A DNA stretch of 61,500 nt from positions 48,867 through 110,366 of the forward strand of contig CAZAGH010000001.1 of NCBI GenBank assembly GCA_964484755.1, in the 5' to 3' direction. This document shows, piece after piece, positions 270 through 35,097 of this stretch. The notes beneath the pieces are model-generated. The model searched no databases. It saw only the letters and a list, made by a program, of their open reading frames with translations, and was not told the origin of the DNA. How positions within the stretch are numbered: position 1 is the first letter of the stretch; the number at the start of each line of letters is the position of its first letter. Origin of the DNA: an uncultured Melioribacter sp. (GTDB taxonomy: Bacteria > Bacteroidota > Ignavibacteria > Kapaibacteriales > Kapaibacteriaceae). A program made the position numbers and the translations under genes.

Positions 270-306
270 CGGCGATTTTTACGCACAACAAAGAAGGAAC
301 ACATAC

Positions 307-627: not shown

Positions 628-866
628 ACATAGCATCAATACGTCAACTGGTAGATACATTCACCAAAGAAGAACTACAGATTGCAGAATCTGCACTCAT
701 GGAAGAGCAGCCACTTGCTATAGATGTCCCTGGTGTTGACGATGGTGAAAGGCTCACGCACCTTATTGCTGCCGTATGGGTGCATGACCATAAATCTGAG
801 CATTCCACCGACACGATGTCGGCCATTCGGGAATACACCAAACGGGTCCGTCAAAGCATTTCGTAA
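624..866 (+). CDS. small acidic hypothetical protein (80 aa), translationally coupled to the thioredoxin
   Basis: Its ATG overlaps the trx stop (ATGA at 624-627). The composition is helical and acidic. I recognise no motif. Confidence 0.5.
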   Translation: MNIASIRQLVDTFTKEELQIAESALMEEQPLAIDVPGVDDGERLTHLIAAVWVHDHKSEHSTDTMSAIREYTKRVRQSIS

Positions 867-873
867 GACTTGC

Positions 874-3870: not shown

Positions 3871-4011
3871 AACTGGCGTGACCTGTTGTGTTGCATAGAT
3901 CAAAATATCGAGCTCGAAGATGGAACGGAGAACACCAAGACAGAGTTCCGTTACAAGAGTTCGCAATTTACGACCGATATTTGCCTCAAATTGCACGAAA
4001 AAGGGAATCAC

Positions 4012-11369: not shown

Positions 11370-11387
11370 GGCTGCAAAAATACGGAG

Positions 11388-16995: not shown

Positions 16996-17342
16996 GCCCG
17001 CATTACAAGCGTTATCCCAGATCCTATCAATAGCATGCCTGCTACGGCCGTGTACGACACACGGTCGTGGCCGAGGATGTATGTGAGTGCAATCGTTGCG
17101 ACAAATGTTGTGGCGGTATTGACAGGAATGAATGCGCTAGGCTTGAATTGCGAAAGCGCATAGCTGAGCACAACAAATGATAGCAGCATAAGCGCTATAC
17201 CCGCCAGACCCTTGGTAGTCAAACAGGCTTTAAGGTACTCCATGATCGACTGAGGATTTTGCCCGAACGCACCGCTCAAGAGCATTGCCCCAGAAACACT
17301 CGTAGAAGACTGAACCAGACAGATCAGCAGCAGATTTGTCAC
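16989..17342 (-). CDS. small 4-TM DMT/SMR-like (EamA-half, ArnE/F-like) membrane protein (117 aa)
   Basis: Four hydrophobic helices in 117 aa. The GTG start overlaps the upstream stop (GTGA at 17339-17342). The family assignment rests on size and topology only. Confidence 0.5.
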   Translation of the reverse strand: MTNLLLICLVQSSTSVSGAMLLSGAFGQNPQSIMEYLKACLTTKGLAGIALMLLSFVVLSYALSQFKPSAFIPVNTATTFVATIALTYILGHDRVSYTAVAGMLLIGSGITLVMRAQ

Positions 17343-20300: not shown

Positions 20301-20809
20301 AGTAACAGACTCAACATCAGACCTGATAGCACAACGCAGTAGGCCATCAAGCTGTGCTTGCGTTTCTTATCAATGATGACCGAAAAGTCTTTGTTCCTTG
20401 CCTGCTCTGCTACCTGAGTAAATGCTGCAGAAGCCAGTTCCCCCTCGGCACCAGCCTCGTTGGTCAATTGCAGAACATTAACGAGTTCGTCCTTTATGTC
20501 GTCGTAATGAGAACCGATGCGTACCGCTGTTTCCTCTACCGATTCATGTTTACGCAGACCCAGAAGCTTCATGACTGGGGGCAGCACAATGGCACCAATT
20601 CCAATCAAGACAATGCTGACAAGCGACCACCACATGAAAGCACGAGTCGACATACCCATGTTGAAGGCATGCTCCAGAAGACTCGCAAGCACGGCCAACG
20701 TCAGAGCGCCACTTGAAACCGCCACGATGCCCATTGCAGCATAGTACAAGCTCTCCTGTCGCTGAGCTGACCGGATTCGTGTGATGACTTCGTGTCGATT
20801 GGGTTTCAT
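17339..20809 (-). CDS. large membrane protein, DUF4175-like: N-terminal TM bundle, beta-rich middle domain, roughly 550-aa Met/Gln/Glu/Lys-rich coiled coil (1,156 aa)
   Basis: ATG at 20809 (MKPNRHEV...), with an alternative TTG at 20827. TM helices lie in the first roughly 190 aa. Heptad-like low complexity continues to about aa 1080, followed by a conserved-looking tail (RQERILSRLLDASRSMTERDYEKS). The DUF4175 call is from memory of that family's architecture. Confidence 0.6.
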   Translation of the reverse strand: MKPNRHEVITRIRSAQRQESLYYAAMGIVAVSSGALTLAVLASLLEHAFNMGMSTRAFMWWSLVSIVLIGIGAIVLPPVMKLLGLRKHESVEETAVRIGSHYDDIKDELVNVLQLTNEAGAEGELASAAFTQVAEQARNKDFSVIIDKKRKHSLMAYCVVLSGLMLSLLLGVPQLKQGFQRLMSYDVSYLPPAPFQLRLVVETDTLLRGANATINVEAKGIPPEQIQINVRDKASSAYVPHTVQRDAKGKYSFVVQGMTSSASVYASAPWLESIVTTDTAAITVIDRPLLRSFAGVVQPPSYAGLPATQLSISAADVTSLIGSSVRLSITSNKTIGQAFVRVISSNSTTGAQDTSRIALDARGATAAGAFRVTGNGQYAVEIIDTDGLRNSDPLTASIVALTDSYPMIALVEPRDNVNLSEKATLRITTTISDDYGFSSLRLMYRLTNSRYAEPEKNFRSINISIPSKEISQDVSYTWDLAAIGITPDDTYEYYVEVADNDVVGGPKKSKTSTMIVRMPSLDEVFANADRTQTDVQKEMKELVKEADAVRKEAEQLQREMQKQQSKQQQEVSWSDKKKAEDLLKRQQELESKMENVAQKLEQMTQNLQENRAISEETLQKYQELQKLMKELKSPELARMQEQLKKAMDEISPEEMQKMMKDFKFNEEEFRKNLERQLNLLKRMQAEQKTDELAKRAEELARKQDELRQRAEQSNPANKAENKRLAEEQQRLNEEFAKLAQEAKELENLMKEVGQDMPSEKMQQAQKDLDAQQTEQQMEKAQQEMERGENQSASSKQQQASNNLQRFAQQMKNMKREMRRNSQREAMRQMQKGVNDLLDVSKNQEALREQMKSLDPNSSQYSQLAQKQQRAQEAMQNIANSMMQLGQKSMSVSPEMAQDLGDALQSMKDAMQSMSQRNSQQAMQSQSQAMGAMNSAAQKMSNALSSMMQGEGSGQGGSGSMPGQGQGKGQPSPFQRLQQLADQQQSINQGMQQLGQGNGGRSDMERRAELGRLASQQGKAMKAIQELEEERKKIVGERQPLGDLKQIAKDMQEVMSDLQSGSVSSETRLRQERILSRLLDASRSMTERDYEKSRESNSGKDVQRTSPADFALPTSKQQQNRTLLDQLKMGYTRDYESIIRQYYEALQRQRIGSGVAK

Positions 20810-20827
20810 GCGTTGTATGCTGCTCAA

Positions 20828-21529
20828 TTAACGTGTAAGGGCATAGACAAGAATGTTCGTGCCGATTCTTAGCGCCATCTCTCGCCGCTCCGGCGTATCG
20901 TGATGCACCTCGGGGTCTGCCCATCCATCGCTTGGATTCGTCTCATAGGTGTAATACACCGCCAGTTTACCGTTCACGAACAGACCAAATCCTTGAGGGG
21001 GCTTTTCATCATGTTCATGAATCTTCGGTAGACCGTTCGGAAAATCAAAATGACAGTGATACAGCTTATGCGAAAAGGGTAGCTCTTTGAGATCTTCCTG
21101 CGGAAAGAGACGCTTGAGTTCCTTGCGTATGGAGGCATCCATGCCATAATCGTCATCGATGTAGAGAAAGCCCCCTGCCTCGAGGTAGGCCCGAAGATTT
21201 CGCAATTCAGCATCAGAGAAACTCACAGTACCGTGGCCTGTCATGAAGATCACAGGGTACAGAAATAGGTTGTCGGTACCAAGATCAACAAACTCATACG
21301 TTGGTTCGACAAGGATTGGAGTGTTTGCTCGCACATAGCGAAGCAAATTGATCTCCGAACTTGGGTCGTTATACCAGTCTCCCCCGCCGGAGTACTTTGC
21401 TCTGGCAATCTTGACAGCACTGCCAACACCGGTAGCTGGCTGCACGGGCTTTGAAGGGGCTTGCGCACTGGATACCAATGTCCCCAGTACCATTACCACC
21501 AGCAGTATGATGCTTGAACAGATGGTCAT
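20828..21529 (-). CDS. DUF4159 domain-containing protein, secreted or periplasmic (233 aa)
   Basis: The start is trimmed to ATG 21529, which overlaps the rsmG stop (ATGA). A signal-like N-terminus is present (MTICSSIILLVVMVLGTLVSSAQA). The DUF4159-like blocks are KYSGGGDWYNDP, LFLYPVIFMTGHG.VSFSD.E..NLR.YLE.GGFL.IDD. Confidence 0.65.
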   Translation of the reverse strand: MTICSSIILLVVMVLGTLVSSAQAPSKPVQPATGVGSAVKIARAKYSGGGDWYNDPSSEINLLRYVRANTPILVEPTYEFVDLGTDNLFLYPVIFMTGHGTVSFSDAELRNLRAYLEAGGFLYIDDDYGMDASIRKELKRLFPQEDLKELPFSHKLYHCHFDFPNGLPKIHEHDEKPPQGFGLFVNGKLAVYYTYETNPSDGWADPEVHHDTPERREMALRIGTNILVYALTR

Positions 21530-22191
21530 CGTTGTCTGCACACGATTACCTTTTTGTCGTTTTCTTCGAACCATGGTTGCCCGAAAACACGAATTGGGTG
21601 CTCTGTAATTGTCCAGCGCGGATGTTGCTCAGCTGCTTCTGCAAGTTCATCGATGAGTTCGCCACCTTTCAGAAAGGCGCAATATCCAGTGGGCTTGACG
21701 AGATTGGTAACCCATGACAAGACAGCACCAGTTCGGGCTACAGCGCGAGAGATGACAACGTCGAAGGCTTGCCGGTACTGACTCTCTAAGGCGAGGTCCT
21801 CGGCGCGAGCATTGATCACTGTCATGTCTTTTAGTGCTGTATGCTGTGCAAACATCTCAGTCATAGTGGTCTTCTTACGGATAGAATCAACCATGACGAT
21901 CTTGATATCAGGTCGTGCAACCTTGACGGGGATACCAGGAAGCCCACCACCGGTACCAACATCAAGCACGCGGGCCTTTTGCTTGATGTCGACTGCTTTC
22001 AGCAACGTCAGGGAGTGAAGAATGTGACGTTCCCAGACGTTCTCCTCATCCTTACGAGAGATCATGTTTACACGCTGATTCCAGTAAATGAGCTCATCGT
22101 GGTACCGCTCAAGAGTATCGACCTGTTCCTTATCCAACACGATACCGTTCGTGGAGCAAGCAGTCCAAAATTCGAGAGGTGTCATCGGCAT
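21526..22191 (-). CDS. rsmG: 16S rRNA (guanine527-N7)-methyltransferase RsmG
   Basis: The start is trimmed to ATG 22191 (MPMTPLEFW...). Contains YHDELIYWNQRVNMIS, HILHSL and the SAM motif VLDVGTGGGLPGIP. Confidence 0.88.
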   Translation of the reverse strand: MPMTPLEFWTACSTNGIVLDKEQVDTLERYHDELIYWNQRVNMISRKDEENVWERHILHSLTLLKAVDIKQKARVLDVGTGGGLPGIPVKVARPDIKIVMVDSIRKKTTMTEMFAQHTALKDMTVINARAEDLALESQYRQAFDVVISRAVARTGAVLSWVTNLVKPTGYCAFLKGGELIDELAEAAEQHPRWTITEHPIRVFGQPWFEENDKKVIVCRQR

Positions 22192-22290: not shown

Positions 22291-22944
22291 ATGGCAAGGC
22301 GAGAGTCAAAAACGGCAAAACGGGAGCGCGTTAACGTTATTCTGGACAGATTGTCCAGATCATACCCCGATGCTAAGGTCGGCCTCGATTTTGAAACACC
22401 GTTGCAGTTGCTGATCGCTACGATACTGTCGGCACAGTGTACCGATGCCCGCGTGAACATGGTTACTCCTGGCCTGTTTGAGAAGTATCCAACCGTTGAC
22501 GACTTTGCCCATGCTCAAATCGAAGAGCTCGAAGATGCAGTCCGCACGACGGGGTTTTACAAGAACAAGGCTAAGAACATACAATTGTGCTGCCGTCAGC
22601 TCATTGAACGCCATAGTGGTGATGTACCCGAAACAATGCAGGATCTCACGCAACTGGCGGGGGTAGGACGAAAAACAGCCAACTGCGTCCTGACCAATTG
22701 CTTTGGGATTCAGGGGATTACCGTTGATACGCACGTTACCCGCATCTCAAATCTTCTGGGCCTGGTCAACGATGAGGATGCTGTCCGCATTGAGTTTTCA
22801 CTCATGGAACTCATTCCAAAAGAGCGCTGGAACGAATTCAATCACAGTATCATTGCCCATGGCCGCGCCACATGTATAGCGCGTCGCCCGAAATGCGATC
22901 AGTGCCCCATCAGCGATCTGTGCCCGTCAGCAAGATTATCGTAG
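22291..22944 (+). CDS. nth: endonuclease III
   Basis: The HhH-GPD fold sequence (LLIATILSAQCTD.RVN, LAGVGRKTANCVL) and the C-terminal 4Fe-4S cluster motif CIARRPKCDQCPISDLC are present. Confidence 0.92.
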   Translation: MARRESKTAKRERVNVILDRLSRSYPDAKVGLDFETPLQLLIATILSAQCTDARVNMVTPGLFEKYPTVDDFAHAQIEELEDAVRTTGFYKNKAKNIQLCCRQLIERHSGDVPETMQDLTQLAGVGRKTANCVLTNCFGIQGITVDTHVTRISNLLGLVNDEDAVRIEFSLMELIPKERWNEFNHSIIAHGRATCIARRPKCDQCPISDLCPSARLS

Positions 22945-22998
22945 CCCATATGTCACATCTCAGTGCGTATTATGCACTATAGGGGTATGGGAACATCA

Positions 22999-25035
22999 AT
23001 GATGATCATCAAGGTAGTCGCACTATGTCTTGCGACGTTTGCTACTCTAGTTGCCCAGGAGTCACCGTCATGGGGTGTTCTTGCAGGGGGCTCGTACGTC
23101 AATCACGAGGCTTCGTTCCAACGATTGGCTGATTATCCTTCCTGTTGTCCATCATTTACGGGCGGTGATGCATTTTCATTCCATGCTGGTGCGTTCTATC
23201 GCAGACCGCTAAGCTCATTCTTCGTGCTTGAGGGACGCCTTATAGCTGCTGGAGAACATGGATCTATGAAGGATCAGGAAAGCACGTTCGTGGCGGACCT
23301 GCGTGATACACTCCGTGTTGTGCGTGCAACGTTTGAACATGCCCTTGACGCTTCCCTCTTTTCCGTAGGACTCGAACCTGTTGTAGCAATGCGTCTTACA
23401 AAAGGGTTCGATCTGCTCATTGGTTCGCGAATTGGCGTAAACATCCAACAGAGTTTTCAGCAAACTGAGACGCTTGCCAAGCCTGAAGACTATGGTGCTT
23501 ACCTCGGTGCCGATCGAACATGGGTTGCAACGCAAGCGCAGATCCCCAATACTCAACCTGTGCGTTTCTCCATTCTCGCCGGGATGCGCGCAAGATTGCC
23601 CCAACGCCCATCGTCATCAGTAGGTGTCGGATTTGAATTGCTCTACACGCAAGGACTGACAAACGTCGTAACCGATGTTCCATGGCTCGTGCACCAGTTG
23701 CGCCTGTCTGCTGTGCTCACGTTTACAACGCCGCAGAATAAACCCACTAAACACGATACATGCATCGACTGTCTGCCCAACATTGCAGCAAAGGTAGAGC
23801 CAGTGAAGCTACCTGTGGTGTCAAAGGTTGATAGCAGTAATGTGAAGCCCCTTAACAAGACTGTCCCGCCAGCAACTATTGAGGTATCAGGTGTCTCGGA
23901 TGGCGACACGACGAAGGGCGTTATCAATGTCCTAGAGCGCAATCGTCGTGTTATCATACTTCATCCACTCCTGGGTCACGTATACTTTGATCGAGGATCT
24001 GCGAAGCTTCCTGATCGTTATCTACGTGCTATCGCACGTTCGCGAACCGACACATTGAATCTTCGACCTATCGAGGCTCTTCAAGGAGAGCTCGGGATCA
24101 TTGCGCAGCGCATGAAGGCCCATCCCGATGCGTGGCTGAGCATCATAGGCACTACCTCCAGCACCAGTGATGATGAAGGTATACAACTTGCAAGAGCTCG
24201 TGCAGAAGAGGTGCGGCGAACAATGAATGAATTGGGTATCTACGACGACCGACTCAGAGTGAGTGCTCGTGTTTTTCCGGAGAAGCCCACTACATTTTCT
24301 GACACCTCGGCACAGACGTTGGCACAGGAAGAGAATCGTCGAGTTGAGTTGTCGTCGAACAATCCTGCAATTCTTGCACCGATTAAACTTGGCACGACCG
24401 AAAGAACGCATAAACCAGACGCTCTCATTGTTCAGGGTAAGCTTGCAGATGGTCATGACGGCTTCGATCTCAAACTTCGTATTCGACGCGGAGGCACAGT
24501 TATCGCAGAACATATGTCTTCTGCCGGGAAGGAACGAGCAGCCGTGCAATTGGATCTGTCAAAGGATCTCGACCGCACTAGTGGCGATAGCATAGTTGTG
24601 GACGTCGTTACGGTAAGAGATGGCAAGGAAGAAAGTGTCGCAACAAAATCGATCCCTGTTCTCCGCAATGAAGAGGAGTTAACGCAGACTGAACGATCCG
24701 GAGATCTGATAATCGAGCGTTACGGACTCATCCTGTTCGATTTTGATGAAGTTCGAATCTCTAGACAACATGAGCGTCAGCTTCAGTTTATTCGCTCACG
24801 TATACGTGAAAACACGTCTGTAATGGTGATTGGTGCAACTGATCAGATTGGGTCACAGGCATACAACCGCGAGTTGTCGCTCAAACGTGCAAGAGAGGTA
24901 TCAAAGCGTCTAGGCGTGTCCGGTGCAATGGTTGTTGGAAACGGTGAAGACAATCCGTCCCTACCAAATGAACTTCCAGAGGGTAGATCCTTCAATCGCA
25001 CCGTGATCATACAGCTTGCCACCCCGATAAAGTAG
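22999..25035 (+). CDS. outer-membrane protein: N-terminal beta-barrel-like domain plus two OmpA_C-like peptidoglycan-binding domains (678 aa)
   Basis: Signal peptide MMIIKVVALCLATFATLVAQ, then about 230 aa of alternating amphipathic strands. The first OmpA_C-like unit ends in ENRRVELS and the second in PEGRSFNRTVIIQL. It is a paralogue of 29469-31472. Confidence 0.75.
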   Translation: MMIIKVVALCLATFATLVAQESPSWGVLAGGSYVNHEASFQRLADYPSCCPSFTGGDAFSFHAGAFYRRPLSSFFVLEGRLIAAGEHGSMKDQESTFVADLRDTLRVVRATFEHALDASLFSVGLEPVVAMRLTKGFDLLIGSRIGVNIQQSFQQTETLAKPEDYGAYLGADRTWVATQAQIPNTQPVRFSILAGMRARLPQRPSSSVGVGFELLYTQGLTNVVTDVPWLVHQLRLSAVLTFTTPQNKPTKHDTCIDCLPNIAAKVEPVKLPVVSKVDSSNVKPLNKTVPPATIEVSGVSDGDTTKGVINVLERNRRVIILHPLLGHVYFDRGSAKLPDRYLRAIARSRTDTLNLRPIEALQGELGIIAQRMKAHPDAWLSIIGTTSSTSDDEGIQLARARAEEVRRTMNELGIYDDRLRVSARVFPEKPTTFSDTSAQTLAQEENRRVELSSNNPAILAPIKLGTTERTHKPDALIVQGKLADGHDGFDLKLRIRRGGTVIAEHMSSAGKERAAVQLDLSKDLDRTSGDSIVVDVVTVRDGKEESVATKSIPVLRNEEELTQTERSGDLIIERYGLILFDFDEVRISRQHERQLQFIRSRIRENTSVMVIGATDQIGSQAYNRELSLKRAREVSKRLGVSGAMVVGNGEDNPSLPNELPEGRSFNRTVIIQLATPIK

Positions 25036-25095
25036 CCCCACTTGATCTGTGCATATCTCTCTGTATCAACGGTTGTGCGCACTCAACCGATGTGG

Positions 25096-25103
25096 TATCA
25101 TTG
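25096..25103 (+). promoter_or_regulatory. possible -7 box TATCATTG (one mismatch to TATCTTTG) upstream of the giant surface-protein gene
   Basis: Lies 34 nt upstream of ATG 25138 in the only sizeable gap (about 100 nt) of this cluster. The match is one base off consensus. Confidence 0.25.
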
Positions 25104-25137
25104 TGCATCGTTAGAGTATCCAATTCAAGGGGTTGAT

Positions 25138-28100
25138 ATGGGATCGTGGTGCACACGCCGTTTTGTGCTGTCTATTCTTGCATTATTTGGGGTGGCCGCG
25201 CTCCATGCGCAAACGATTGTTCCGCTGCGAATAGCTACGGATAGTTTCCCCCAAGTAACAGCCCGAATAGTTGCTTTGGATAATGCGGGGATGCCACAGG
25301 GTTTGTCTGGCGCAGACGTTATCGTATCGGACAATGGTGTTGAGCAGACGATTACACCTTCATGCGACGCATCTACTTCTGGACGCAACCTCTCGCTTGT
25401 GGTAGCAGTTGACGCCTCGTTATCAATGAGCTCTACTGCCTCGCCTACCACGATGGATCTGGCCAAGAATGCTGCGCGCGGCATTACGCAACTGCTAACA
25501 TCAACAGCAGATGAGATCGCTCTCATTCAACTGTCTTCATCAGCACAGATGCTCTACGGACTGTCGACCAACAAGACCGCCTACAGTGCATCTGTTGATG
25601 CTATGGTTGCAAAAGGCGGAATGAGCAGTGGTAAGGGGCTCACAGACATCCCGTATGGTGCCCTAACGCACCTGCAGAATGCCCGAAATGCTCGTGCCCT
25701 CCTGTTGATCACAGATGGTGCAAGTTCATTTGATGTCAGGTCAGCAATCGCTTCGGCCCGTACGTTCGGTATTGCAGTCTACGTTGTCTGCCTTCGCTCA
25801 TCGATTAACGCTGACATGAAGATGCTTGCAGATTCCACGAATGGTTCGTGGTGTGAACAGATCCAGTCGATCGCTGATGCTCAGGCATTTGCAAGGGCCT
25901 TTGTTGCAGATGCAAAGCGATTGCCAGGATGCACAGTTACCTGGAAGACAACATCGACGTGCGATCGTGCGCACAAGGTGATACTTACCAGAGGAACCTC
26001 CAGCAGGACTACTGCGTACGCAGTGCAAAAGGATAAGACAGTCTATCTGGAGTCGAATGTCACAGGTATCGAGTTCGGCACGGTTTCGACTGGCGGCAAA
26101 CTTGTTCGTTCAGTAACGGTGACGGCCAGAAACGGCTCCGTTACGATCGACGGTATCGGAAACTTCACATCATCGAGTTTTCAAGTCGTTGGTGCGCCTC
26201 GTTTCCCTGTTACCCTTCAAGCCAATGCAAGTCTAACCCTGTCCATTGAATACACGGCAGCTAGCGATGTTGGCGTGTATGACCGATTGGCATACAGCGC
26301 TCCTGGTTCCTGCTCGCCCCCTGTCATTCATGTTCATGGCGGAAACGCACGGAGTGGAGATGTTCTAGAACTCGTTGGACCCAATGGCGGTGAGACATTG
26401 CTAGCTGGGCAAGACACAACGATTCGATGGAAAAATGCTCTCCCTGACGACTTTGTACGCATCGAAGTCAGCTACAATGACGGTGCGACGTGGTCATCAC
26501 TGATAGAAAACGCACAAGGTCTTTCATACCAGTGGCGTCCTGGTCCACAAACCTCGAATCAATCACGCATTCGTATCTCGCGTACTGTCATCGACCCCAA
26601 TGACATAGTTGTCATGCGCGGACAAGATCAGCCTGTGTATGCTTCCATCTTTACTGAAGACGGTAAGCATGTCATTACGGGCGGTCATGACGGTTCCGTT
26701 CGTATCTGGAGTGCGCAGGATGGCTCACAGGAGCGCATTGTTGGTCTCCATGGCAATTGGGTTTGGTCCTTGTCTCAAAAGCCAGGAACAACGATTGTTG
26801 CCTCTGCTTCGCATGATGGTAGTGTCCGAGTATGGGACTACACAAACGGTCAACGTATTGCCACCATCCCTGCGGAAGGCCGTGTATGGTCGGTCGTATT
26901 CAGTCGCGATGGTAATAAACTCTATGCTGGCACAGACCGCGGTATAGCGGAGATTAACACGTCAACATGGACGATCTTCACATCACGGATTGTAGATCAA
27001 GGCCCTGTTTACAATCTCAAGCTCGTTGGTAACGGGCAACAGCTCGCAGTAGCCGAAGGAACGCAGGCCACCCTCCGGGATATCAAGTCGCTTGACGTCG
27101 TACGAGTATTCAAACAATCGGGCGCTACGGAGCAGCAATATGCCGTGGCCGTTAATCCAGCCGGTACGGAGCTTGCCAGTGGTGGCGCTGATCTGCGGGT
27201 GCACGTCTACAAGGTTTCTGATGGATCGGTCGTGAAAGCCCTGCCGCCAATGCGTGGTGGAGTTCTTGCGCTCGATTATTCCGCGAGCGGCACGACATTG
27301 CTGGTTGCTGGCGGCGACGGTACGGCTAAGACATACACGTCTTCAACGCTGGATCTTCAAACCTCACTCGCAGGACACAATGGCATCTTGTATTCGGGAT
27401 CATTTTCACCAGATGGCAAACGTGTAGTAACATCATCTACGGACTTCACCGCCCGTGTATGGTCGCTTGAGCGTATTGGCAGCACAAATGACGTCTCTGA
27501 TCGAGCCTTTGCAATTGTTGGTGGCGTTCGCGAGTCTACGCCGCAGTTTATGGGCGACGTTGTCGTTGGCTATGGAACAGATGCTCGCAAGGTGGTGGTG
27601 ACGAATCAAGGTGCTTCGCCGCTCGTGATCACCGGCGTTAAGATAGGATCTGGAGACACCACAGATTTTGCCATTCTTGATGCTACAGTGCCGGCCCTTG
27701 TAACGCCCACGACACCATTTTCCGTTGACATTGCGTTTACACCAACAACGGCAGGACCACGCGAGGCATATCTGACATTTGAAAGTGGTATGGGCACGTT
27801 TTCTGTTCTCATTACAGGAAATGGTATTGTCTCGCCGATATCTGCTCCATCCGTCATTGATTACGGCCGCAGGGTCGCCAATCAGTCGGTTGTTGACTCG
27901 ATCATCACGATTCGTGCTAGTGGCTCACTGCAAGCACCTGTCCAAATCGCGTCGATGACAATCCTCGGAGAACAGGCAGGACAATATTCCATCGTGGATG
28001 GTGGCGGCAGCGTTTCAATACAGCCCGGCCAGACCCATAAGATCACGGTACGATTCGATCCAACGAACTACGGACGCTTTGCCGCTGCGCTTGAACTTCG

Positions 28101-29472
28101 AATCACTGGTAAACAATCTGTTACTATTGGACTTTACGGTGAAGCTACCGGAGATGGCCGCATTGCATCATCATCAAACACCCTGCTCTTCCCAACTGGC
28201 ACATGCCGTTATATCACATCACAAATGCCATTCGATTTGCGTAATAGCGGTAATACTGAACTACAGGTCTATTCCGTAGGGATTGATGGTGCTAATGCAG
28301 ACGAATTCACAATAAGTACAGCTGATACCTACCCGATTACTATCGCTCCAAACAGTAGCAAGAGCTTCGTTGTGACCTTTGCGCCGAATCGAGTTGGGGT
28401 AAAGGATGCTCGCGTCGTTATCTCCTCCAGTGCAATCAATGCCTCGAACGGACGCACGACGATTAGTATGTCTGCTCGCAAAGACTCCGTGGGATTCGAG
28501 CTGTCCCGGTCAGAGCTCGATTTCGGCAACGTTCCAGAGAACACGGTCGTATCAGAGCGAATTCTCCTGCTGAATACGGGAACAATCTCCCTGAAGTGGC
28601 CGCGCAACTCCGTTACCGTTGGTCGCTTTCAAATCGACAGCATCACGCCGGACATCACCGGTGGTGGAAAGCGATCGGATATGACGATTCGATTCCTTGG
28701 CGGTCGCGCTGGTGAGACATACGACACAACGTATGAATTCATCGATACGATCTGTGGTCGCAAACAGTCAATTCGACTTCTAGCGACAGTGAAATCATAC
28801 ATCGGTGCCACGATTGAGATTGATACAGTGTACTCGCAAACGGGCTCCCTCGTGAGTGTCCCTATCTACGTCAAGAACCTCGTAAACTTCGACAGAACGT
28901 CAGTTCGCACCATCACAGGTCATTTCCGCGTTAACGGAACACTTCTTTCTGCGGCTAACAATGTGGCTAATGCTAAGCTGCATGACAATGGCGATCTAAC
29001 ATTTGATGCGCCAATTCCGATACCTGCAACCGAGGGATTGTCGACGACGTTGACGTTCTCGACGGCTTGGGGCAATGACACTGCCTCGTTTGTACGTATC
29101 GACAGCCTGACCTTTACCGATACGCTAACCTTCCGCACGATCGATGGTTCTGTTATTCTTACCGACATCTGCAAGCAAGGGGGCGAAGCACGACTCGTAA
29201 AACTTGGCGCGCAATCCGCGGGTATCATGATTGGACCGAACCCGACGCGAGACATTGCGCAGCTTCAGATCTCAGCTTCAGAGATTGGTCTTACGACCAT
29301 TCAGCTCTTCTCTGTCTCTGGCGCTCACATCAGTACCCTGTTGCATGCTCACCTGCGACCCGGCATATGGTCTCAAGACCTTGATGTATCTGCCCTTCCA
29401 ATGGGTACCTATTTCATGGTTATGTCGACACCAACAGAGACAATCACGCGCCGCATGGAGGTGGTTCGATGA
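25138..29472 (+). CDS. giant secreted multidomain protein: vWA (MIDAS) + Ig-like/ASH ('choice-of-anchor D'-like) repeats + 7-bladed WD40 propeller + cohesin-like module + T9SS C-terminal sorting domain (1,444 aa)
   Basis: Signal peptide MGSWCTRRFVLSILALFGVAALHAQ. The vWA MIDAS is LVVAVDASLSMSS, followed by LLLITDGAS (about 25390-25920). WD40 blades carry GGHDGSVRIWS, SHDGSVRVWD, GGADLRVHVY, GGDGTAKTY and STDFTARVWS (about 26630-27480). Five repeats of an approximately 100-aa Ig-like unit follow (...FG.V....V....V.NTG...L.I). The tail is GPNPTRDIAQLQI...LPMGTYFMVMSTPTETITRRMEVVR. Confidence 0.8.
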   Translation: MGSWCTRRFVLSILALFGVAALHAQTIVPLRIATDSFPQVTARIVALDNAGMPQGLSGADVIVSDNGVEQTITPSCDASTSGRNLSLVVAVDASLSMSSTASPTTMDLAKNAARGITQLLTSTADEIALIQLSSSAQMLYGLSTNKTAYSASVDAMVAKGGMSSGKGLTDIPYGALTHLQNARNARALLLITDGASSFDVRSAIASARTFGIAVYVVCLRSSINADMKMLADSTNGSWCEQIQSIADAQAFARAFVADAKRLPGCTVTWKTTSTCDRAHKVILTRGTSSRTTAYAVQKDKTVYLESNVTGIEFGTVSTGGKLVRSVTVTARNGSVTIDGIGNFTSSSFQVVGAPRFPVTLQANASLTLSIEYTAASDVGVYDRLAYSAPGSCSPPVIHVHGGNARSGDVLELVGPNGGETLLAGQDTTIRWKNALPDDFVRIEVSYNDGATWSSLIENAQGLSYQWRPGPQTSNQSRIRISRTVIDPNDIVVMRGQDQPVYASIFTEDGKHVITGGHDGSVRIWSAQDGSQERIVGLHGNWVWSLSQKPGTTIVASASHDGSVRVWDYTNGQRIATIPAEGRVWSVVFSRDGNKLYAGTDRGIAEINTSTWTIFTSRIVDQGPVYNLKLVGNGQQLAVAEGTQATLRDIKSLDVVRVFKQSGATEQQYAVAVNPAGTELASGGADLRVHVYKVSDGSVVKALPPMRGGVLALDYSASGTTLLVAGGDGTAKTYTSSTLDLQTSLAGHNGILYSGSFSPDGKRVVTSSTDFTARVWSLERIGSTNDVSDRAFAIVGGVRESTPQFMGDVVVGYGTDARKVVVTNQGASPLVITGVKIGSGDTTDFAILDATVPALVTPTTPFSVDIAFTPTTAGPREAYLTFESGMGTFSVLITGNGIVSPISAPSVIDYGRRVANQSVVDSIITIRASGSLQAPVQIASMTILGEQAGQYSIVDGGGSVSIQPGQTHKITVRFDPTNYGRFAAALELRITGKQSVTIGLYGEATGDGRIASSSNTLLFPTGTCRYITSQMPFDLRNSGNTELQVYSVGIDGANADEFTISTADTYPITIAPNSSKSFVVTFAPNRVGVKDARVVISSSAINASNGRTTISMSARKDSVGFELSRSELDFGNVPENTVVSERILLLNTGTISLKWPRNSVTVGRFQIDSITPDITGGGKRSDMTIRFLGGRAGETYDTTYEFIDTICGRKQSIRLLATVKSYIGATIEIDTVYSQTGSLVSVPIYVKNLVNFDRTSVRTITGHFRVNGTLLSAANNVANAKLHDNGDLTFDAPIPIPATEGLSTTLTFSTAWGNDTASFVRIDSLTFTDTLTFRTIDGSVILTDICKQGGEARLVKLGAQSAGIMIGPNPTRDIAQLQISASEIGLTTIQLFSVSGAHISTLLHAHLRPGIWSQDLDVSALPMGTYFMVMSTPTETITRRMEVVR

Positions 29473-31472
29473 AACGCATCCAACTCCTCAGCTTAGTCGT
29501 TGCCATATTCAGCTTGGCGTCATTGCGACTTGATGCTCAAGCACAGAACGCACGTCTTGGTCTGGTCTTACATGGTGGACTAGATCTCCACATGACAGGC
29601 TTTTCTAGAATCCCCGAAGAGGAAAATTGTTGTCCTGAGTTTACAGGCGGACAGGGCTATCTGTTTGGTCTATCTGCGCAGTACCTCGCCCCCCTGTCAA
29701 CGTCACTTGGCATTGATGTTCGAGCTGGGTATTACTCATCTGGTGTTGATCTTACCACAACCGAGTCACAGACATTGTTCGACCGCGGTGTGCGCGTTCC
29801 TGCCTCGATTCAGCATGAACTCAACGTGACTCATGCGATGCTTGGGCTTGATGTACTCGGCAGATACACGCTCAGCAAACAGATGTTTTTGCTCGGTGGC
29901 GTGACCATGGGATACAACCTTTCCGGAACGTATTCGCAGGCAGAGCGACTGTTGACACCAGGTAATGCAACGTTCGAAAACAACCAACGACTGCGCAATC
30001 AACGCAGTGGTGACCTCGAGTCACTAAGTGGAGTGTACCTGGGACTTACGACTGGTCTGTCATTTGATCTACCAATGAATGCTGATAACACGGCGTTTAT
30101 CTCTCCCGAATTGTTGATCAGTATCAGTCCTACGAATCTTTTGCAGGAAACATCATGGCTCATACAACGAGCCCGTGCCGGCGTTTCCATCTCATTTATA
30201 CCGCCAGCAATGGAGGACGATCTCAGCGACATCGAACTGTTCGATATCGCGCGTAACTCGCCTCTGCGCTCAGCATCTGAGTCTAAGACTATTCCAATAC
30301 CAACGGTTAGGTTGAGTGGTATCAGCGAAGACGGAACTCCGCTGACAACCTCCGGTGTACGCATCGAAGAGTTTGCGTCAAATCGGATTCGCCCCCTGCT
30401 ACCGTATGTCTTTTTCGATAAGGGCTCGCACATCCTACCGACTCGTTACAGACAGATCGGTAAAGATCAGATCGAGGGCTATTCATTAGAGAATTTCTAC
30501 AACCTTGATGCAATGGTCACCTATTACCAGATGCTCAACATCGTTGGTAAGCGCATGCAGGATAAGCCTGAGGCCACGATAACGTTAACGGGATGCCGTG
30601 ATAAGTCCGAGGATGGTTTAAGCGACGATCTTGCGAAGCGTCGTGCTATTGTCATAAAGTCCTATTTGGTTGATACGTGGGGCGTTGATGGTTCACGTAT
30701 CACGGTTGAAGATCGCGGACTGCCTTCCGTGGCATCCTCATCTGATGATGCGGATGGTGCAGCTGAAAACATGCGTGTTGAAATATCCGCAAGTGATGCA
30801 TCGATTCTCTCACCGGTGGGATCGCGCGATACGATGCGCGTCTTCACACCTGCCGGTATGCGTTTTAGTCCAACTGTGCAACAGGGCGAGCAGGTCAAGT
30901 CATGGACGTTGTTTGTTTCTCAAAACGAGCAGATCATCAAGGTGTTTCATGGCCAAGCAACTCCTCCAGTACAAGTTGATTGGAGACTAGCTGAAACGTC
31001 ACGATTCATTCCTCGTGGAACTAGAAATCTTGAATACATGCTCGTTGTACAAGATTCGGCTGGTGCGATCATACCGAGTGAAGCCGGATCAGTGCAGGTC
31101 TCAGAAGTCCTGCTCTCTGATAAGGCACGCACCGGAGGAACAGACAAGAACATTGATCGGTATTCATTGATATTGTTTGGATTCGACCGTGCCGATGTTT
31201 CTGCTGATAATCAGAGATTGGTAAGTGAGATCAAGAAGTCTATCACATCGCGTTCTACGGTCAAGGTCGTTGGTTACTCCGACCGTGTTGGTGATGCTGC
31301 GTATAACCTGAGCCTTAGTGAGAAGCGTGCAAAGGCTGTAGCTAGTGCTTTGGGAACGGAGAGAACTTCAACCCAGGGTCTCGGTGAATCACTACCATTG
31401 TATGACAATGATACTCCGGAAGGCCGATTCTACTCCAGAACAGTCGAGGTAGTTGTGGAGACTCCGCGGTAG
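29469..31472 (+). CDS. outer-membrane protein: beta-barrel-like domain plus two OmpA_C-like domains (667 aa), paralogue of 22999-25035
   Basis: The ATG overlaps the upstream stop (ATGA). Signal peptide MKRIQLLSLVVAIFSLASLRLDAQA. It shares these blocks with the other copy: CCPEFTGG, LLPYVFFDKGSHILPTRY, DRYSLILFGFD and TPEGRFYSRTVEVVV. Confidence 0.75.
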   Translation: MKRIQLLSLVVAIFSLASLRLDAQAQNARLGLVLHGGLDLHMTGFSRIPEEENCCPEFTGGQGYLFGLSAQYLAPLSTSLGIDVRAGYYSSGVDLTTTESQTLFDRGVRVPASIQHELNVTHAMLGLDVLGRYTLSKQMFLLGGVTMGYNLSGTYSQAERLLTPGNATFENNQRLRNQRSGDLESLSGVYLGLTTGLSFDLPMNADNTAFISPELLISISPTNLLQETSWLIQRARAGVSISFIPPAMEDDLSDIELFDIARNSPLRSASESKTIPIPTVRLSGISEDGTPLTTSGVRIEEFASNRIRPLLPYVFFDKGSHILPTRYRQIGKDQIEGYSLENFYNLDAMVTYYQMLNIVGKRMQDKPEATITLTGCRDKSEDGLSDDLAKRRAIVIKSYLVDTWGVDGSRITVEDRGLPSVASSSDDADGAAENMRVEISASDASILSPVGSRDTMRVFTPAGMRFSPTVQQGEQVKSWTLFVSQNEQIIKVFHGQATPPVQVDWRLAETSRFIPRGTRNLEYMLVVQDSAGAIIPSEAGSVQVSEVLLSDKARTGGTDKNIDRYSLILFGFDRADVSADNQRLVSEIKKSITSRSTVKVVGYSDRVGDAAYNLSLSEKRAKAVASALGTERTSTQGLGESLPLYDNDTPEGRFYSRTVEVVVETPR

Positions 31473-31475
31473 TGC

Positions 31476-32582
31476 ATGAAGATCCTTGTATTCAATTGGC
31501 AGGATAGACTGCACCCTCAGGCCGGCGGTGCTGAAGCACATCTGCATGAAATCTTTTCAAGACTCGTGGCAAGGGGCCATGAGGTCCACTTGGTTACCTG
31601 CTCGTTTGATGGCGCTGCCGAGACGGAGATTCTTGATGGCATGCGCGTATATCGCATTGGCTCAAGGTCGACGTATAACCTGCATGTTCCGATTTGGTGG
31701 CATCGCATTGGTAAGGGGCTAGGAGTTGATGTCGTAGTAGATGACATCAACAAGATTCCTTTGATGACGCCGCTCTATATCAAGAAGCCCATTGTGGCAC
31801 TTGTACATCATCTGTTTGGTTCAAGCATATTTCATGAAGCTAGTCTTCCAGCGGCATTGTATGTCAACATCGCCGAGCGTTGTTTGCCATTCGTGTATCG
31901 ATCGACACCAATGGCTACCGTCTCTGAGAGTACCCGGCAAGATTGTATTGCGAAAGGACTTCATGCTTCGCGATTATCCCTTATTTACAATGGTATAGAT
32001 GCGGCCGAGTATCCGATGCAGGTAACTCAGAAAGCCCCCTATCCGGTGATCTCCTACTTTGGTAGACTCAAGGCGTATAAATCTGTTGACCATGTTATTC
32101 GTGCGTTTGCCGGTTTGCGACAGCACGAGCAAGCTGCTCGTTTGTGGATCATTGGTAAGGGCGACGATGAACAGCGGCTTAGGGACATTGCTAGACAACT
32201 GGGTGTTAGCGAGGCTATCGACTTCCATGGATTTGTCGATCAATCAACCAAGATTCGCCTTCTCTCGCAAAGCTGGATCGTCGTGAATTCCTCGATCAAG
32301 GAAGGTTGGGGCATAACAAACATCGAGTCAAATGCTTGTGGTACACCTGTTGTTTCAGCGGATTCTCCAGGATTGCGCGATTCGGTGAAGATTGACGTAT
32401 CGGGTAAACTCTATCCATATGGCGATATTCGTGCGTTGCAGGAAACACTCCAACAACTCATTGCCGATCAGGACGAGCTGCATCGACTCTCTCAAGGTGC
32501 GGTTGATTGGGCATCTCAGTTTTCGTGGGATCAAAGCACTACGGAAATGGAATCACTTCTCAAGAAATGTATAGACTCGTAA
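31476..32582 (+). CDS. GT4-family (GT-B, RfaG-like) glycosyltransferase (368 aa)
   Basis: N-terminus MKILVFNWQD..HP.AGGAE and C-terminal donor-binding region (VVNSSIKEGWGITNIESNACGTPVV). Starts 3 nt after the upstream stop. Confidence 0.8.
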   Translation: MKILVFNWQDRLHPQAGGAEAHLHEIFSRLVARGHEVHLVTCSFDGAAETEILDGMRVYRIGSRSTYNLHVPIWWHRIGKGLGVDVVVDDINKIPLMTPLYIKKPIVALVHHLFGSSIFHEASLPAALYVNIAERCLPFVYRSTPMATVSESTRQDCIAKGLHASRLSLIYNGIDAAEYPMQVTQKAPYPVISYFGRLKAYKSVDHVIRAFAGLRQHEQAARLWIIGKGDDEQRLRDIARQLGVSEAIDFHGFVDQSTKIRLLSQSWIVVNSSIKEGWGITNIESNACGTPVVSADSPGLRDSVKIDVSGKLYPYGDIRALQETLQQLIADQDELHRLSQGAVDWASQFSWDQSTTEMESLLKKCIDS

Positions 32583-34519
32583 CATTCATCGTTGTCGTAT
32601 GTACCCTATTGTCAACTGCGGCTTTGGGGCAGCCCCTGCGTGATAGCAAGGGACAAGATTTCTGGTTAGCAGTACCACCCAACGACCATATTTCTGGATT
32701 GTCCGCTGATCCTGCCATCGTCGCAATCTTCGTTGCAACCTCACAAGCATGCCAGGTAGATGTCGATGCTCGACGGCGTGATGGTACTGTTGATCGATTT
32801 TCAGTTCCTGTTCCAGCAAATGTTGTCTGGCAGTTTCGCTTGACAGCCGATCTCTACGAGCTACGAGGCGCAAATCAGATCGGTCAGCTTGGCCAGGATG
32901 ATGAGCGTCCCAACCCGGCAAGCATACATGTGCGATCGACTGCCGATGTAACGGTCTATGCATGTATGCGCGACGATAACACCAGCGATGCATGGCTCGT
33001 GTTACCCACCGATGCGTTGTCGGATGAATATCTCATTTCAACTTACGCTTCCGATGCAACAGGCTCAACGGCATATCCGAGTCAGTTTGTCGTGGTTGCC
33101 ACTGAAGACTCAACCGTGGTCAACATCGACCTCAGTGTCGATCGTTCAGCACGCACAAACGGCTCTCAACGCACCGTCATTCTTAATACTGGCGAGTCAT
33201 ACCTTGTGCAGGCTCGCGTATCCAATGGTCGAACCAATGATGATCTCACGGGGTCAAGAATTCGAGCTTCAAAGCCTGTCGTCGCTATAGCTTCTCACCG
33301 ACGTGCGCAGGTTCCGATCTTGACGTCGTCTGCAAGTAGAGACTGTCTGGTAGAGCAAATGCCGGGAATTGATACGTGGGGTAAACAGATATTGGTAGCT
33401 CCATTGTCTCCGGCAAGCAATGCACGGCCGTTCAACGACGACGATGTGACAGTATGTCGCATATTAGCCTCACGAGATAGCACGATCGTAACAGTGAATG
33501 GACTAACACCTTGGAGAATCGATGCTGCAAAGTATTGGGATATCCCCTTGGATCGCCCCCTAAACATTGTTGCAACAGAGCCGGTGCTTGTCACAATCAT
33601 TGATCGTAGTGCTAATCGCGGTTCCTTTGGTAACAGTTCACCTGGCGATCCATCGCTTATCGTCGTCCCACCGTTTGAGCAGTTCCTTGATCAATACCGT
33701 GTGGTCACCATCGAGCCTCGCTTGAATGGGAATGCCTTCTACACATCACACTTCATCACGTGTATTGCCCCTACTGCGGCGATTGCGAGTCTTCGCGTAA
33801 ACGGAGCGGCACCAACAGCATCTGTTGCCATTCCCGGCTCTACATTCTCATACACCACCTACAGCGTTTCCTCTGGTAATCACCAGCTAACGTGCGACTC
33901 TGCCTTCGGTGTTATCGTCTACGGCTATGGACCCGCTGAATCCTACGGGTATACCGGTGGTATGGCTTTCCAAAAGTTGTTCGAACCATCACTGCGACTA
34001 CGGGTTACCGATGCGCGCGGGCTAGCTGGTGCGTCAGACACCTTGGCCATTGTGGTCGACAGCATCGACGATGGAGACAATTTTTACCTTTCAGGTGTAC
34101 GCTCCGTGTCGTGTCAGATCTCGTTTGACGGAAGCATCTTCGTGCCGACGAATCAGGATTCCTTGAGTATCACGCAGTCGCGCGTTGTTGTGCATCTTGA
34201 CTTTGCATTCGATACACTGCGCGTTGGTGATACGTTGGGAATGATACGTGGCATTCACACACTTGGCCCGATGGCAAAGACACTCGCCGTTATAGATTCG
34301 ACGAGTTGGTATTCGGAACGGGGCTTTCTGGTGCAGGTTAACACAGAGAAGATACCCGGAGAGATAGAAACACTCGGAATATGCGAGGAACAAGATCGAA
34401 CGCGGTTGTTTGATCCAACCGTCACTCGTCGACCTCGCAGGATGCTTTACGATGTTCTCGGAAGAAAGATTGCGACACCGGTTGATGACCTACCCGTTGG
34501 CGTCTATTTTGAACAATGA
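32567..34519 (+). CDS. secreted IgGFc-binding-protein-N-terminal-like domain protein with a shortened T9SS-tail-like C-terminus (650 aa)
   Basis: The start is trimmed to ATG 32567 (signal MYRLVTFIVVVCTLLSTAALGQP). The family-typical motifs are GQDFWLAVPPN and ASHRRAQVP...CLVEQMPGIDTWGK. The C-terminus (MLYDVLGRKIATPVDDLPVGVYFEQ*) resembles the middle of a Por tail but stops early. Confidence 0.65.
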   Translation: MYRLVTFIVVVCTLLSTAALGQPLRDSKGQDFWLAVPPNDHISGLSADPAIVAIFVATSQACQVDVDARRRDGTVDRFSVPVPANVVWQFRLTADLYELRGANQIGQLGQDDERPNPASIHVRSTADVTVYACMRDDNTSDAWLVLPTDALSDEYLISTYASDATGSTAYPSQFVVVATEDSTVVNIDLSVDRSARTNGSQRTVILNTGESYLVQARVSNGRTNDDLTGSRIRASKPVVAIASHRRAQVPILTSSASRDCLVEQMPGIDTWGKQILVAPLSPASNARPFNDDDVTVCRILASRDSTIVTVNGLTPWRIDAAKYWDIPLDRPLNIVATEPVLVTIIDRSANRGSFGNSSPGDPSLIVVPPFEQFLDQYRVVTIEPRLNGNAFYTSHFITCIAPTAAIASLRVNGAAPTASVAIPGSTFSYTTYSVSSGNHQLTCDSAFGVIVYGYGPAESYGYTGGMAFQKLFEPSLRLRVTDARGLAGASDTLAIVVDSIDDGDNFYLSGVRSVSCQISFDGSIFVPTNQDSLSITQSRVVVHLDFAFDTLRVGDTLGMIRGIHTLGPMAKTLAVIDSTSWYSERGFLVQVNTEKIPGEIETLGICEEQDRTRLFDPTVTRRPRRMLYDVLGRKIATPVDDLPVGVYFEQ

Positions 34520-35097
34520 TCATCGTTTGTCACAAACCCTACGGATATCTTTCGCAGTTTACTCCCGAGCCAGGCAGCTCTTGGAAGACGCTTTCAGAAT
34601 TGCAACTGCCTGCCGACGTGTATCCAGTTGGACGACTTGACGCAGACAGCGAAGGAATGTTGGTACTGAGCGATGAGCGCGAGATTGTCGCCCAACTTCT
34701 CGAACCAGCAAATGGACATCCCAGAACATACTGGGCCCAAGTAGAGCATGCCGCAGATTCAGATTGCTTAAACAATCTCGAGAATGGTGTTGTGATACAA
34801 GGACACAAAACCAGGCCATGCAAGGCTCGGATCATCACAGCGCCAGAAGGACTTGACGAGCGCAACCCTCCGATTCGTCAGCGTAAATCGGTACCTACAT
34901 CTTGGATAGAACTTGAGCTGACAGAGGGTAGGAATCGTCAAGTACGGCGAATGACGGCTGCGGTAGGACACCCCACCTTACGACTCATCCGCGTTAGGAT
35001 TGGAAGTCTTGACCTGAGGAGCCTCAATCTGCGTGTCGGGAGTTGGTGTTCCCTGACGCATGCTCAACGATTGCAGCTTCTTCAACGACCGAAGTGA
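34516..35097 (+). CDS. rluE: RluE/RsuA-family rRNA pseudouridine synthase (193 aa)
   Basis: Contains HKPYGYLSQF and the catalytic Asp motif VGRLDADSEGMLVLSDE, plus EGRNRQVRRM and GHP.LRL.RVRIG. The ATG overlaps the upstream stop (ATGA). Confidence 0.8.
   Translation: MIIVCHKPYGYLSQFTPEPGSSWKTLSELQLPADVYPVGRLDADSEGMLVLSDEREIVAQLLEPANGHPRTYWAQVEHAADSDCLNNLENGVVIQGHKTRPCKARIITAPEGLDERNPPIRQRKSVPTSWIELELTEGRNRQVRRMTAAVGHPTLRLIRVRIGSLDLRSLNLRVGSWCSLTHAQRLQLLQRPK

Follow-up and report, generated by a model that had tools for sequence, protein, structure and literature searches.

We analysed a 61,500-nt stretch of DNA from an uncultured Melioribacter sp. (contig CAZAGH010000001.1), hereafter named, as a whole, the window. 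Open reading frame (ORF) and domain annotation delimits in it one block of genes on the + strand, at 22291-35097, in the order nth, A, B, C, D, E and a rluE-like gene, A to E being our own labels. The subject of this study is the relation between A and C, which encode outer-membrane barrel proteins with two OmpA_C domains each, and B, which encodes a large surface protein ending in a type A C-terminal domain (CTD), as found in type IX secretion system (T9SS) cargo. The genes of the block are the following.

22999-25035, + strand: gene A, 678 aa, signal peptide, 8-stranded OmpA-like barrel, two OmpA_C domains around a beta-sandwich
25138-29472, + strand: gene B, 1444-aa surface protein (NCBIfam and Pfam domains)
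29469-31472, + strand: gene C, 667 aa, barrel and two OmpA_C domains (AlphaFold2 (AF2) model, Foldseek)
31476-32582, + strand: gene D, family 4 glycosyltransferase (GT4) without signal peptide (domain matches)
32567-34519, + strand: gene E, 650 aa, signal peptide, IgGFc_binding, cohesin-like module, Cys motif, truncated CTD remnant
22291-22944, + strand: nth (ORF and domain annotation)
34516-35097, + strand: rluE-like gene

An earlier, sequence-only reading of this DNA had given exactly these ORFs, as well as four tight junctions: an ATGA overlap between B and C (29469-29472), a 3-nt gap between C and D (31472/31476), a 16-nt overlap between D and E (32567-32582, from the ATG of E at 32567 to the stop of D at 32582) and a second ATGA overlap between E and the rluE-like gene (34516-34519). 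The nth and A genes are 54 nt apart, and A and B 102 nt. Signal peptides are predicted for A, B, C and E, and not for D. By Pfam and NCBIfam, the domain calls of that reading stand as well, with double OmpA in A and C, VWA, WD40, Ig and CTD in B, GT4 in D and IgGFc_binding in E.

A and C align over their full length (28% identity, E=4e-64), as expected from the paralogy already proposed for them. Both match OmpA (PF00691) above the gathering score, over two stretches each (66 bits for A and 74.3 bits for C, cut-off 27.2). A scores 655 bits against the hidden Markov model (HMM) of the family described below, and the N-terminus of C has a weak Pfam match to OMP_b-brl_2. The AF2 model of C (86 homologues) has a mean predicted local distance difference test score (pLDDT) of 90.9, and exhibits a signal helix, a barrel (residues 29-243), a beta-hairpin (277-308) and then the periplasmic part, made of a first OmpA_C domain (~309-445), an Ig-like spacer (~446-558) and a second OmpA_C domain (~559-667). 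The barrel reads as 8 strands, with two hairpins whose strands are 25-27 residues long. In Foldseek searches, it matched the OmpA transmembrane domain, Ail, OpcA and OmpT, and the periplasmic part matched OprF, Acinetobacter baumannii OmpA (E ~1e-8), YfiB and Pal C-domains; no PorP, SprF, PorV or FadL structure was present among the best 50 Foldseek matches listed for C. Solved OmpA_C domains can be aligned with the second of these domains over the block TD..G....YN..LS..RA..V, in which D605 (TD..G) and R620 (LS..RA) are invariant in 86 sequences. The first is more divergent and found no match in a phmmer search of PDB, yet G375 and R392-A393 are kept. With contact residues thus conserved, the tandem OmpA_C domains are predicted peptidoglycan binders. 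Four sequence blocks noticed earlier as common to A and C (CCPxFTGG, LLPYVFFD..S..LP.RY, DRYSLILFDFD and PEGR.Y.RTV) turned out to be conserved columns across the whole family. The first of them holds a pair of adjacent cysteines in loop 1 of the barrel.

23143-23148, + strand: Cys49-Cys50 of A, CCPSFTGG loop 1 motif (columns at least 90% conserved in 86 members)
29628-29633, + strand: Cys54-Cys55 of C (NCCPEFTGG), loop 1 between strands 29-43 and 61-75 (AF2)

Loop 1 (residues 44-60 of C) is the best-conserved segment of the barrel in the 86-sequence alignment, with a mean top-residue frequency of 0.63, to be compared with 0.44-0.54 in the transmembrane strands and 0.31 in the periplasmic turns T1 and T2. 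Residues F45, P49, C54, C55, P56 and F58 of C are each conserved in at least 80% of the sequences. The periplasmic domains are likewise strongly conserved. Given that the OmpA_C domains have to lie in the periplasm and that loop 1 is followed by seven strands, this loop should face outward in the predicted model. Extracellular loops are usually the most variable part of outer-membrane proteins, so that the conservation of loop 1, which we infer to be extracellular, suggests a conserved external partner.

A and C are members of a large, unnamed and uncharacterised family of outer-membrane proteins. Among 5.8 billion proteins searched, there were 121 relatives of C at E<=1e-5, whose source names, where given, are only 'OmpA family protein', 'OmpA-like peptidoglycan-associated protein' or hypothetical, and whose organism labels are mostly Kapaibacterium/Kapabacteria, Ignavibacteria and Chlorobiota metagenome-assembled genomes. 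When a profile was searched against 1.84 billion representatives (clusters at 50% identity), 2,702 of these matched at E<=1e-30, and 148 of the 150 best matches were 650-753 aa long. Species-representative genomes contained at least 588 relatives, using a profile from a 13-sequence alignment, with several paralogues per genome.

The neighbourhoods of the family genes were compared in 80 loci taken from these genomes, for which simple gene models were built; neighbour statistics concern 84 non-redundant loci (L005-L087 and the window). An adjacent CTD gene on the same strand was found for 60 of the 86 family members with both neighbours visible, upstream in 39 of them, downstream in 24 and on both sides in 3. 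This proportion is a lower bound, as spurious small ORFs hide true neighbours (e.g. in L013, L031, L053 and L055). In the same loci, CTD-positive genes represent 57 of the 126 adjacent genes (45%) versus 52 of the 712 other genes (7.3%), a strong enrichment (Fisher p=8e-24; binomial p=1e-31). The preference for CTD neighbours, for which the sequence-only reading had asked a neighbourhood survey, is thus found, and the generic porin family it had named as the alternative is not borne out, the pairing occurring in unrelated contexts and with unrelated cargo.

The type A CTD model TIGR04183 matches 47 of the 55 large neighbours, and PF18962 matches 45; no type B CTD model is present among the 25 families listed for these 55 proteins. 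The large neighbours form at least 19 mutually unrelated sequence clusters, with VWA/WD40, SprB/PKD/SBBP, ASH-type Ig arrays or nothing recognisable as passenger domains. On the barrel side, members adjacent to cargo are present in 25 of the 33 family clusters defined at 45% identity. For instance P0073 (34%), P0090 (30%) and P0116 (27%) lie in unrelated contexts, each directly downstream of a protein of 966-1587 aa with Por_Secre_tail, or IgGFc_binding, SprB and PKD, and separated from it by 10 nt or joined to it by an ATGA overlap. In general, one barrel goes with one cargo, which lies upstream or downstream of it; the bracketing of a cargo by two paralogues, noted earlier at this locus, is specific to the lineage of the window.

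The ratio of barrels to cargo varies among loci. Cargo, barrel, cargo and barrel alternate at L055:4155-20324, three tandem motif-bearing cargo genes precede one barrel gene at L024:32-12001, and in L089 and L090 a single-Cys barrel lies between two large proteins. Genes for TPR-CHAT proteins were observed directly downstream of barrel genes that have an upstream cargo, at L029:11910-14894 and L054:10011-12782; their C-termini are false positives of the CTD model used in this study.

We examined next to the CTD what these cargo proteins share. The tail of B is made up of a cohesin-like module, a Cys linker and the type A CTD; its other domains are VWA, a WD40 propeller and four choice-of-anchor-D/ASH Ig stretches.

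28801-29163, + strand: cohesin-like beta-sandwich of B, tail residues 8-128 (AF2, Foldseek)
29170-29214, + strand: Cys linker of B, with Cys1345 (CKQGGEARLVKLGAQ), an instance of C-x-E-G-G-x-R-L
29221-29463, + strand: type A CTD of B (TIGR04183, PF18962; strands 148-228 of the tail model)

The CTD of B is recognised by TIGR04183 (24.5-28 bits, cut-off 23, E=1.6e-6) and by PF18962 (31 bits, cut-off 27, E=3.2e-7). With full-length B as query, 22 full-length orthologues were found, at 43-93% identity; the 230-aa tail used alone as query returned no homologue. The last 230 residues were modelled by AF2 from 18 sequences of one cargo clade plus E, with a mean pLDDT of 83.9. The sandwich is confident (means of 77-92 for 10-residue blocks across residues 11-130), and residues 131-145, which contain the Cys motif, have a pLDDT below 50 and are read as a disordered linker. 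The best Foldseek matches of the module before the CTD are cellulosomal cohesins, with a target-normalised TM-score of ~0.55-0.62. No Pfam family was found for it, the best being Cohesin (PF00963) at E=0.1 and 13.3 bits for a cut-off of 24.1. The label 'cohesin-like' used for B in the sequence-only reading is therefore right for the fold (TM-score ~0.6), and gets no backing from the Pfam profile.

Alignment of the C-termini of CTD proteins from the same loci revealed just before the CTD a stretch common to the neighbours of family genes and to hardly any other, G-x-F-x-L-x-D-(I/L)-C-x-E-G-G-x-R-L. Of 48 CTD proteins bearing the strict motif, 46 immediately adjoin a family gene (Fisher p=2e-14), and the remaining 2 belong to a cluster of tandem cargo genes whose last gene is a family member. 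Among the motif-less CTD proteins, 45 out of 61 are not adjacent to a family gene, and several of the adjacent ones carry recognisable variants of the motif. Conservation reaches ~135 residues upstream of the CTD, and the module is kept in 47 cargo tails. An HMM of this module had 78 matches, E and its orthologues among them, and for 74 of the 78 a same-strand family gene is no more than ~1.1 kb away; those outside are L024|0, L024|5, L035|1 and the weak match L057|42. The distance from the end of the module to the C-terminus is nearly fixed, being exactly 85-86 residues for 30, and 85-90 for 37, of the 44 full-length matches that precede a recognised CTD. Partner cargo thus share a tail composed of a cohesin-like sandwich, a disordered C-x-E-G-G-x-R-L linker and a type A CTD. 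A role of the Cys motif as general processing site for PorU was rejected, as CTD proteins elsewhere in the same loci do not have it.

Gene E carries a modified version of this tail. The module HMM detects E (E=7.6e-13) and its orthologues; E aligns with the tails of B through the cysteine, where it reads G-I-C-E-E-Q-D-R-T-R-L-F.

34382-34384, + strand: Cys606 of E, in GICEEQDRTRLF, aligned with the cargo linker cysteine

After the module, only 32 residues are present in E, versus 85-86 in cargo, with the CTD-like blocks YDVLGRKI and LPVGVYF kept; no CTD is recognised in E by NCBIfam or Pfam. E carries a partner tail with a decayed or truncated CTD. Its earlier description as a second cargo is to be corrected, since its CTD is incomplete and its status as cargo is not established. 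The locus holds two barrels and two proteins with a partner tail.

The cysteines of barrel and cargo were then considered together. Nearly all family members have the loop 1 Cys-Cys. The L079 barrel is devoid of cysteine in loop 1, and in its adjacent cargo, where the sequence is D-L-S-V-D-N-D-G-R-V-I-Q-L-F, Ser replaces Cys. Another Cys-less member, P0120, has no cargo neighbour. Barrels of the single-Cys subfamily (P0096 and P0109) are flanked by two large proteins with divergent tails, each with one cysteine at the corresponding place, and barrels with CCSPGF pair with cargo bearing the one-residue-longer variant C(R/Q)(A/S)(G/R)G..R. Finally, a 257-aa CC barrel without OmpA_C is encoded at L021:6359-7120, ~0.6 kb downstream of a motif-bearing cargo of 1893 aa (53-5734). 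This barrel may occur naturally without the other domains or come from a truncated gene, and hints that the barrel, rather than the periplasmic part, is the element linked to cargo. At L088:15998-18115, ~6 kb from P0120, we observed a PorV gene and a PorU-like gene (Peptidase_C25), which shows that T9SS attachment genes exist in this lineage.

From the genomic pairing, the domain anatomy and the specificity of the motif, all three directly observed, we infer an anchoring function: in the best reading, to which we give a probability of about 0.55, A and C would be cargo-specific surface anchors tied to peptidoglycan. The cargo would cross the outer membrane through the T9SS by means of its CTD. 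Its linker and cohesin-like tail would subsequently bind the barrel at its conserved extracellular face, formed by loop 1 and loop 3, and this docking would hold a large adhesin-like protein at the surface. The tandem OmpA_C domains would tie the complex non-covalently to peptidoglycan, such that surface load may pass to the cell wall. An anchor of this kind had been put forward in the sequence-only reading. The pairing of the family with cargo agrees with it; the parts to be revised or narrowed are dedicated glycosylation, bracketing as a rule, the novelty of the concept and the CTD of E, and the anchoring itself keeps its conditional standing.

A stronger form of the anchor, which we consider rather unlikely, would have the cargo covalently fastened outside the cell. 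The loop 1 Cys-Cys and the linker cysteine might form an intermolecular disulfide, and through the tandem OmpA_C domains adhesin and peptidoglycan would be joined by a continuous load-bearing link. As the cell exterior offers no oxidase, the donor might be a vicinal disulfide made beforehand in the periplasm, a role also proposed for SprF and PorG with their CxC tails. If true, such a covalent link would be a third mode of attachment for T9SS cargo, beside anionic lipopolysaccharide (A-LPS) for type A and non-covalent PorP binding for type B.

Several observations weigh against the anchor reading. The first is E, with module and cysteine and no complete CTD, which is the main internal argument against extracellular docking: were E not exported, it could meet a barrel only in the periplasm. 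Second, the extracellular position of loop 1 hangs on topology parity in a predicted model. Third, ~30% of the family members have no adjacent CTD gene, and one 11-member cluster (45% identity) has no CTD or module neighbour within 10 kb while keeping Cys-Cys; its members may be 'orphan' paralogues or serve a general purpose. As to the cysteines, the co-loss in L079 is a single evolutionary event, and the covariation of motif variants may reflect mere co-inheritance. Another use of Cys-Cys is conceivable, since OmpA proteins of Porphyromonas gingivalis and of Tannerella forsythia make oligomers joined by disulfides (PMC12635249). Type A cargo are handled by the general carrier PorV (PMC12635249), and would normally need no private partner. 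Lastly, the CTD HMM was built from the tails of the neighbours themselves; NCBIfam and Pfam models agree with it independently. In the neighbourless cluster, the loci L040, L043, L060, L061, L068, L070, L073 and L074 each have their family gene at ~10001-12000.

The alternative that survives best, with a small but real chance of being correct, is that the barrel-OmpA proteins are dedicated carriers acting at or before the translocon, like PorP/SprF or PorV, with surface retention secondary or absent. Binding may then be periplasmic, through the Ig-like spacer or the OmpA_C domains, which would fit both the strong conservation of the periplasmic domains and the existence of E, where module and cysteine occur without a full CTD. 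There is also a precedent, each type B cargo needing a private barrel carrier (PMC12635249; PMC9143113). However, known carriers of T9SS cargo are 14-stranded (PMC9143113), and the barrel here is 8-stranded and OmpA/Ail-like. The CTDs of the cargo belong to type A, whose general carrier is PorV, and one related contig does carry a PorV gene. Moreover, the most conserved barrel segment is a loop predicted to be extracellular, and the barrel-only paralogue of L021, beside its cargo, argues against a contact through periplasmic domains.

An improbable alternative to the anchor reading is that these proteins are generic structural OmpA paralogues, whose Cys-Cys would serve to form homo- or hetero-oligomers (for instance A with C), adjacency to cargo genes reflecting co-regulation of the envelope. 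Their classical OmpA architecture, the several paralogues per genome, the neighbourless cluster and other members devoid of cargo, and the disulfide-linked OmpA oligomers mentioned above are all in keeping with it. Nevertheless, the family genes adjoin specifically those CTD proteins that have the Cys-linker and cohesin-like tail, and not CTD or envelope genes generally. In at least 25 sequence clusters, and in unrelated contexts, the pairing is found again with unrelated cargo, and in L079 both partners have lost the cysteine.

The weakest alternative, a glycoprotein-display operon of six genes in which D would glycosylate B or E or build their attachment glycan, might draw on the close junctions of D with C and E, on the C-D-E order kept in 11 of the 11 members of the C-type cluster, and on the type A cargo of P. 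gingivalis being attached to a glycolipid whose synthesis needs glycosyltransferases, but we regard it as very improbable, because no GT4 gene lies beside a barrel-cargo pair in any other family cluster examined, because the same lineage keeps nth, rluE, gidB and ccm too, which makes its synteny not specific to a function, and because D has no signal peptide and finds as best matches generic GT4 models with scores far below cut-offs. The dedicated glycosylation by GT4 imagined in the earlier reading thus gets no support outside the lineage that keeps the whole nth-to-rluE synteny, and the membership of D in the system is uncertain.

Indeed, the order gidB-nth-A-B-C-GT4-E-rluE-ccmF is found whole in relatives at 65% and 52% identity. 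As housekeeping genes share the synteny of A to E, synteny alone says little on function, and nth, rluE and the GT4 gene are probably mere neighbours of the barrel-cargo system. The annotated remainder of the window consists of chromosomal housekeeping genes (purL-like, biotin carboxylase, mutS2, uvrB, penicillin-binding protein, resistance-nodulation-division pump and ccm genes), and its G+C content is flat, at ~0.51. Annotation, which covered parts of the window, showed no core T9SS machinery gene, in line with the earlier statement that the window has none. The counts of sigma-70 promoter-like sites (7, for 14.8 expected) and of terminator-like sites (10, for 10.5 expected) have no bearing on co-transcription.

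Other features of the window were recorded in passing. Beside gidB, at 17339-21574 (- strand), lie genes for a 1162-aa DUF4175 protein and a DUF4159 protein, an arrangement kept in the relatives at 65% and 52% identity (L001-L004). The AT skew is -0.237 at 18001-20000, inside the DUF4175 gene, far outside its range elsewhere in the window. The rluE gene (+) and the ccmF-like gene (-) converge and share ~120 nt at their 3' ends (34978-35097), an overlap also called in L001 and L003. A 1045-aa protein of the Sortilin-Vps10/BNR type is encoded at 874-4011 (- strand), and is CTD-negative by our CTD model.

In current T9SS models, private outer-membrane partners are reserved for type B cargo, type A cargo being handled via PorV, then released or attached to lipopolysaccharide. 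Our results define a large unnamed protein family and a matching cargo signature, suggesting that the Kapaibacterium-Ignavibacteria branch of the Bacteroidota/Chlorobiota group evolved an OmpA-type partner system for type A-like cargo. A cohesin-like module and C-x-E-G-G-x-R-L directly before the CTD would provide a sequence rule to recognise secreted proteins retained on the cell, and better annotation becomes possible for thousands of 'OmpA family protein' and 'choice-of-anchor D domain-containing protein' entries. Specific residues are named for mutation. The results also extend the recent finding of functional intermolecular disulfides in the T9SS/gliding apparatus.

Full-text literature searches, which do not span all journals, found no description of the family, the motif or the pairing. 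This agrees with the earlier reading, to which no such described module was known. However, the concept of a barrel dedicated to a cargo and tied to the wall is known for type B. Type B T9SS cargo stay bound to private PorP/SprF barrels, six porP-like genes of Flavobacterium johnsoniae adjoin porE-like (OmpA_C) genes, and non-mobile type B cargo have been proposed to be tied to the wall via PorP-PorE (PMC9143113).

With PorP/SprF and PorE (PorP-PorE-PG1035 of P. gingivalis, SprF-SprB of F. johnsoniae), the present system has in common a T9SS cargo gene beside a private barrel gene, an OmpA_C element in a proposed route from surface protein to barrel to cell wall, and several paralogous sets per genome. 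It differs in that A and C fuse the barrel and the peptidoglycan binder, with two OmpA_C domains, in one polypeptide. Their barrel is not 14-stranded but 8-stranded and OmpA/Ail-like, matching PF13568. An identity with PorP/SprF (PF11751) was rejected, as none of the 8 N-terminal barrels scanned matched PorP_SprF (Pfam, E up to 10); in the same scan, 7 of the 8 matched OMP_b-brl_2, two of these also OMP_b-brl, and that of L007 matched nothing. The TPR, propeller and CRD of PorE are absent from A and C. Identity with PorE (NF052230) was also rejected, as only the OmpA_C part matched, at 19-25.6 bits for a cut-off of 600, and the N-terminal part forms a barrel preceded by an ordinary signal peptide. 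On the cargo side, the CTDs are of type A, and the cohesin-like module and the Cys linker are undescribed for type B.

Other known systems resemble this one in part. OmpA, OprF and Pgm6-Pgm7 likewise have a small N-terminal barrel followed by a periplasmic OmpA_C domain, and their paralogous genes are clustered; two OmpA_C domains with an Ig-like spacer, long hairpins, an unusually conserved loop 1 and the pairing with cargo set A and C apart. In cellulosomes, the cohesin-dockerin pair relies on a dedicated docking fold, to which the module of B before its CTD is alike in fold. Sequence similarity is however negligible, the barrel proteins showed no dockerin-like element, and the setting here is a diderm outer membrane with a T9SS. 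SprF and PorG, barrels of the T9SS/gliding world with conserved paired cysteines, carry C-x-C in their periplasmic tails and form functional intermolecular disulfides with GldK/PorK (PMC12635249; PMC12365241). PorG is also 8-stranded. Yet the cysteines are there in C-x-C spacing, in a periplasmic C-terminal tail, with the lipoprotein GldK/PorK as partner, whereas here they are adjacent, in loop 1, the candidate partner is the linker cysteine of the cargo and the disulfide is hypothetical. By analogy, the system described here would work like the PorP-PorE anchoring of type B cargo, built from different parts.

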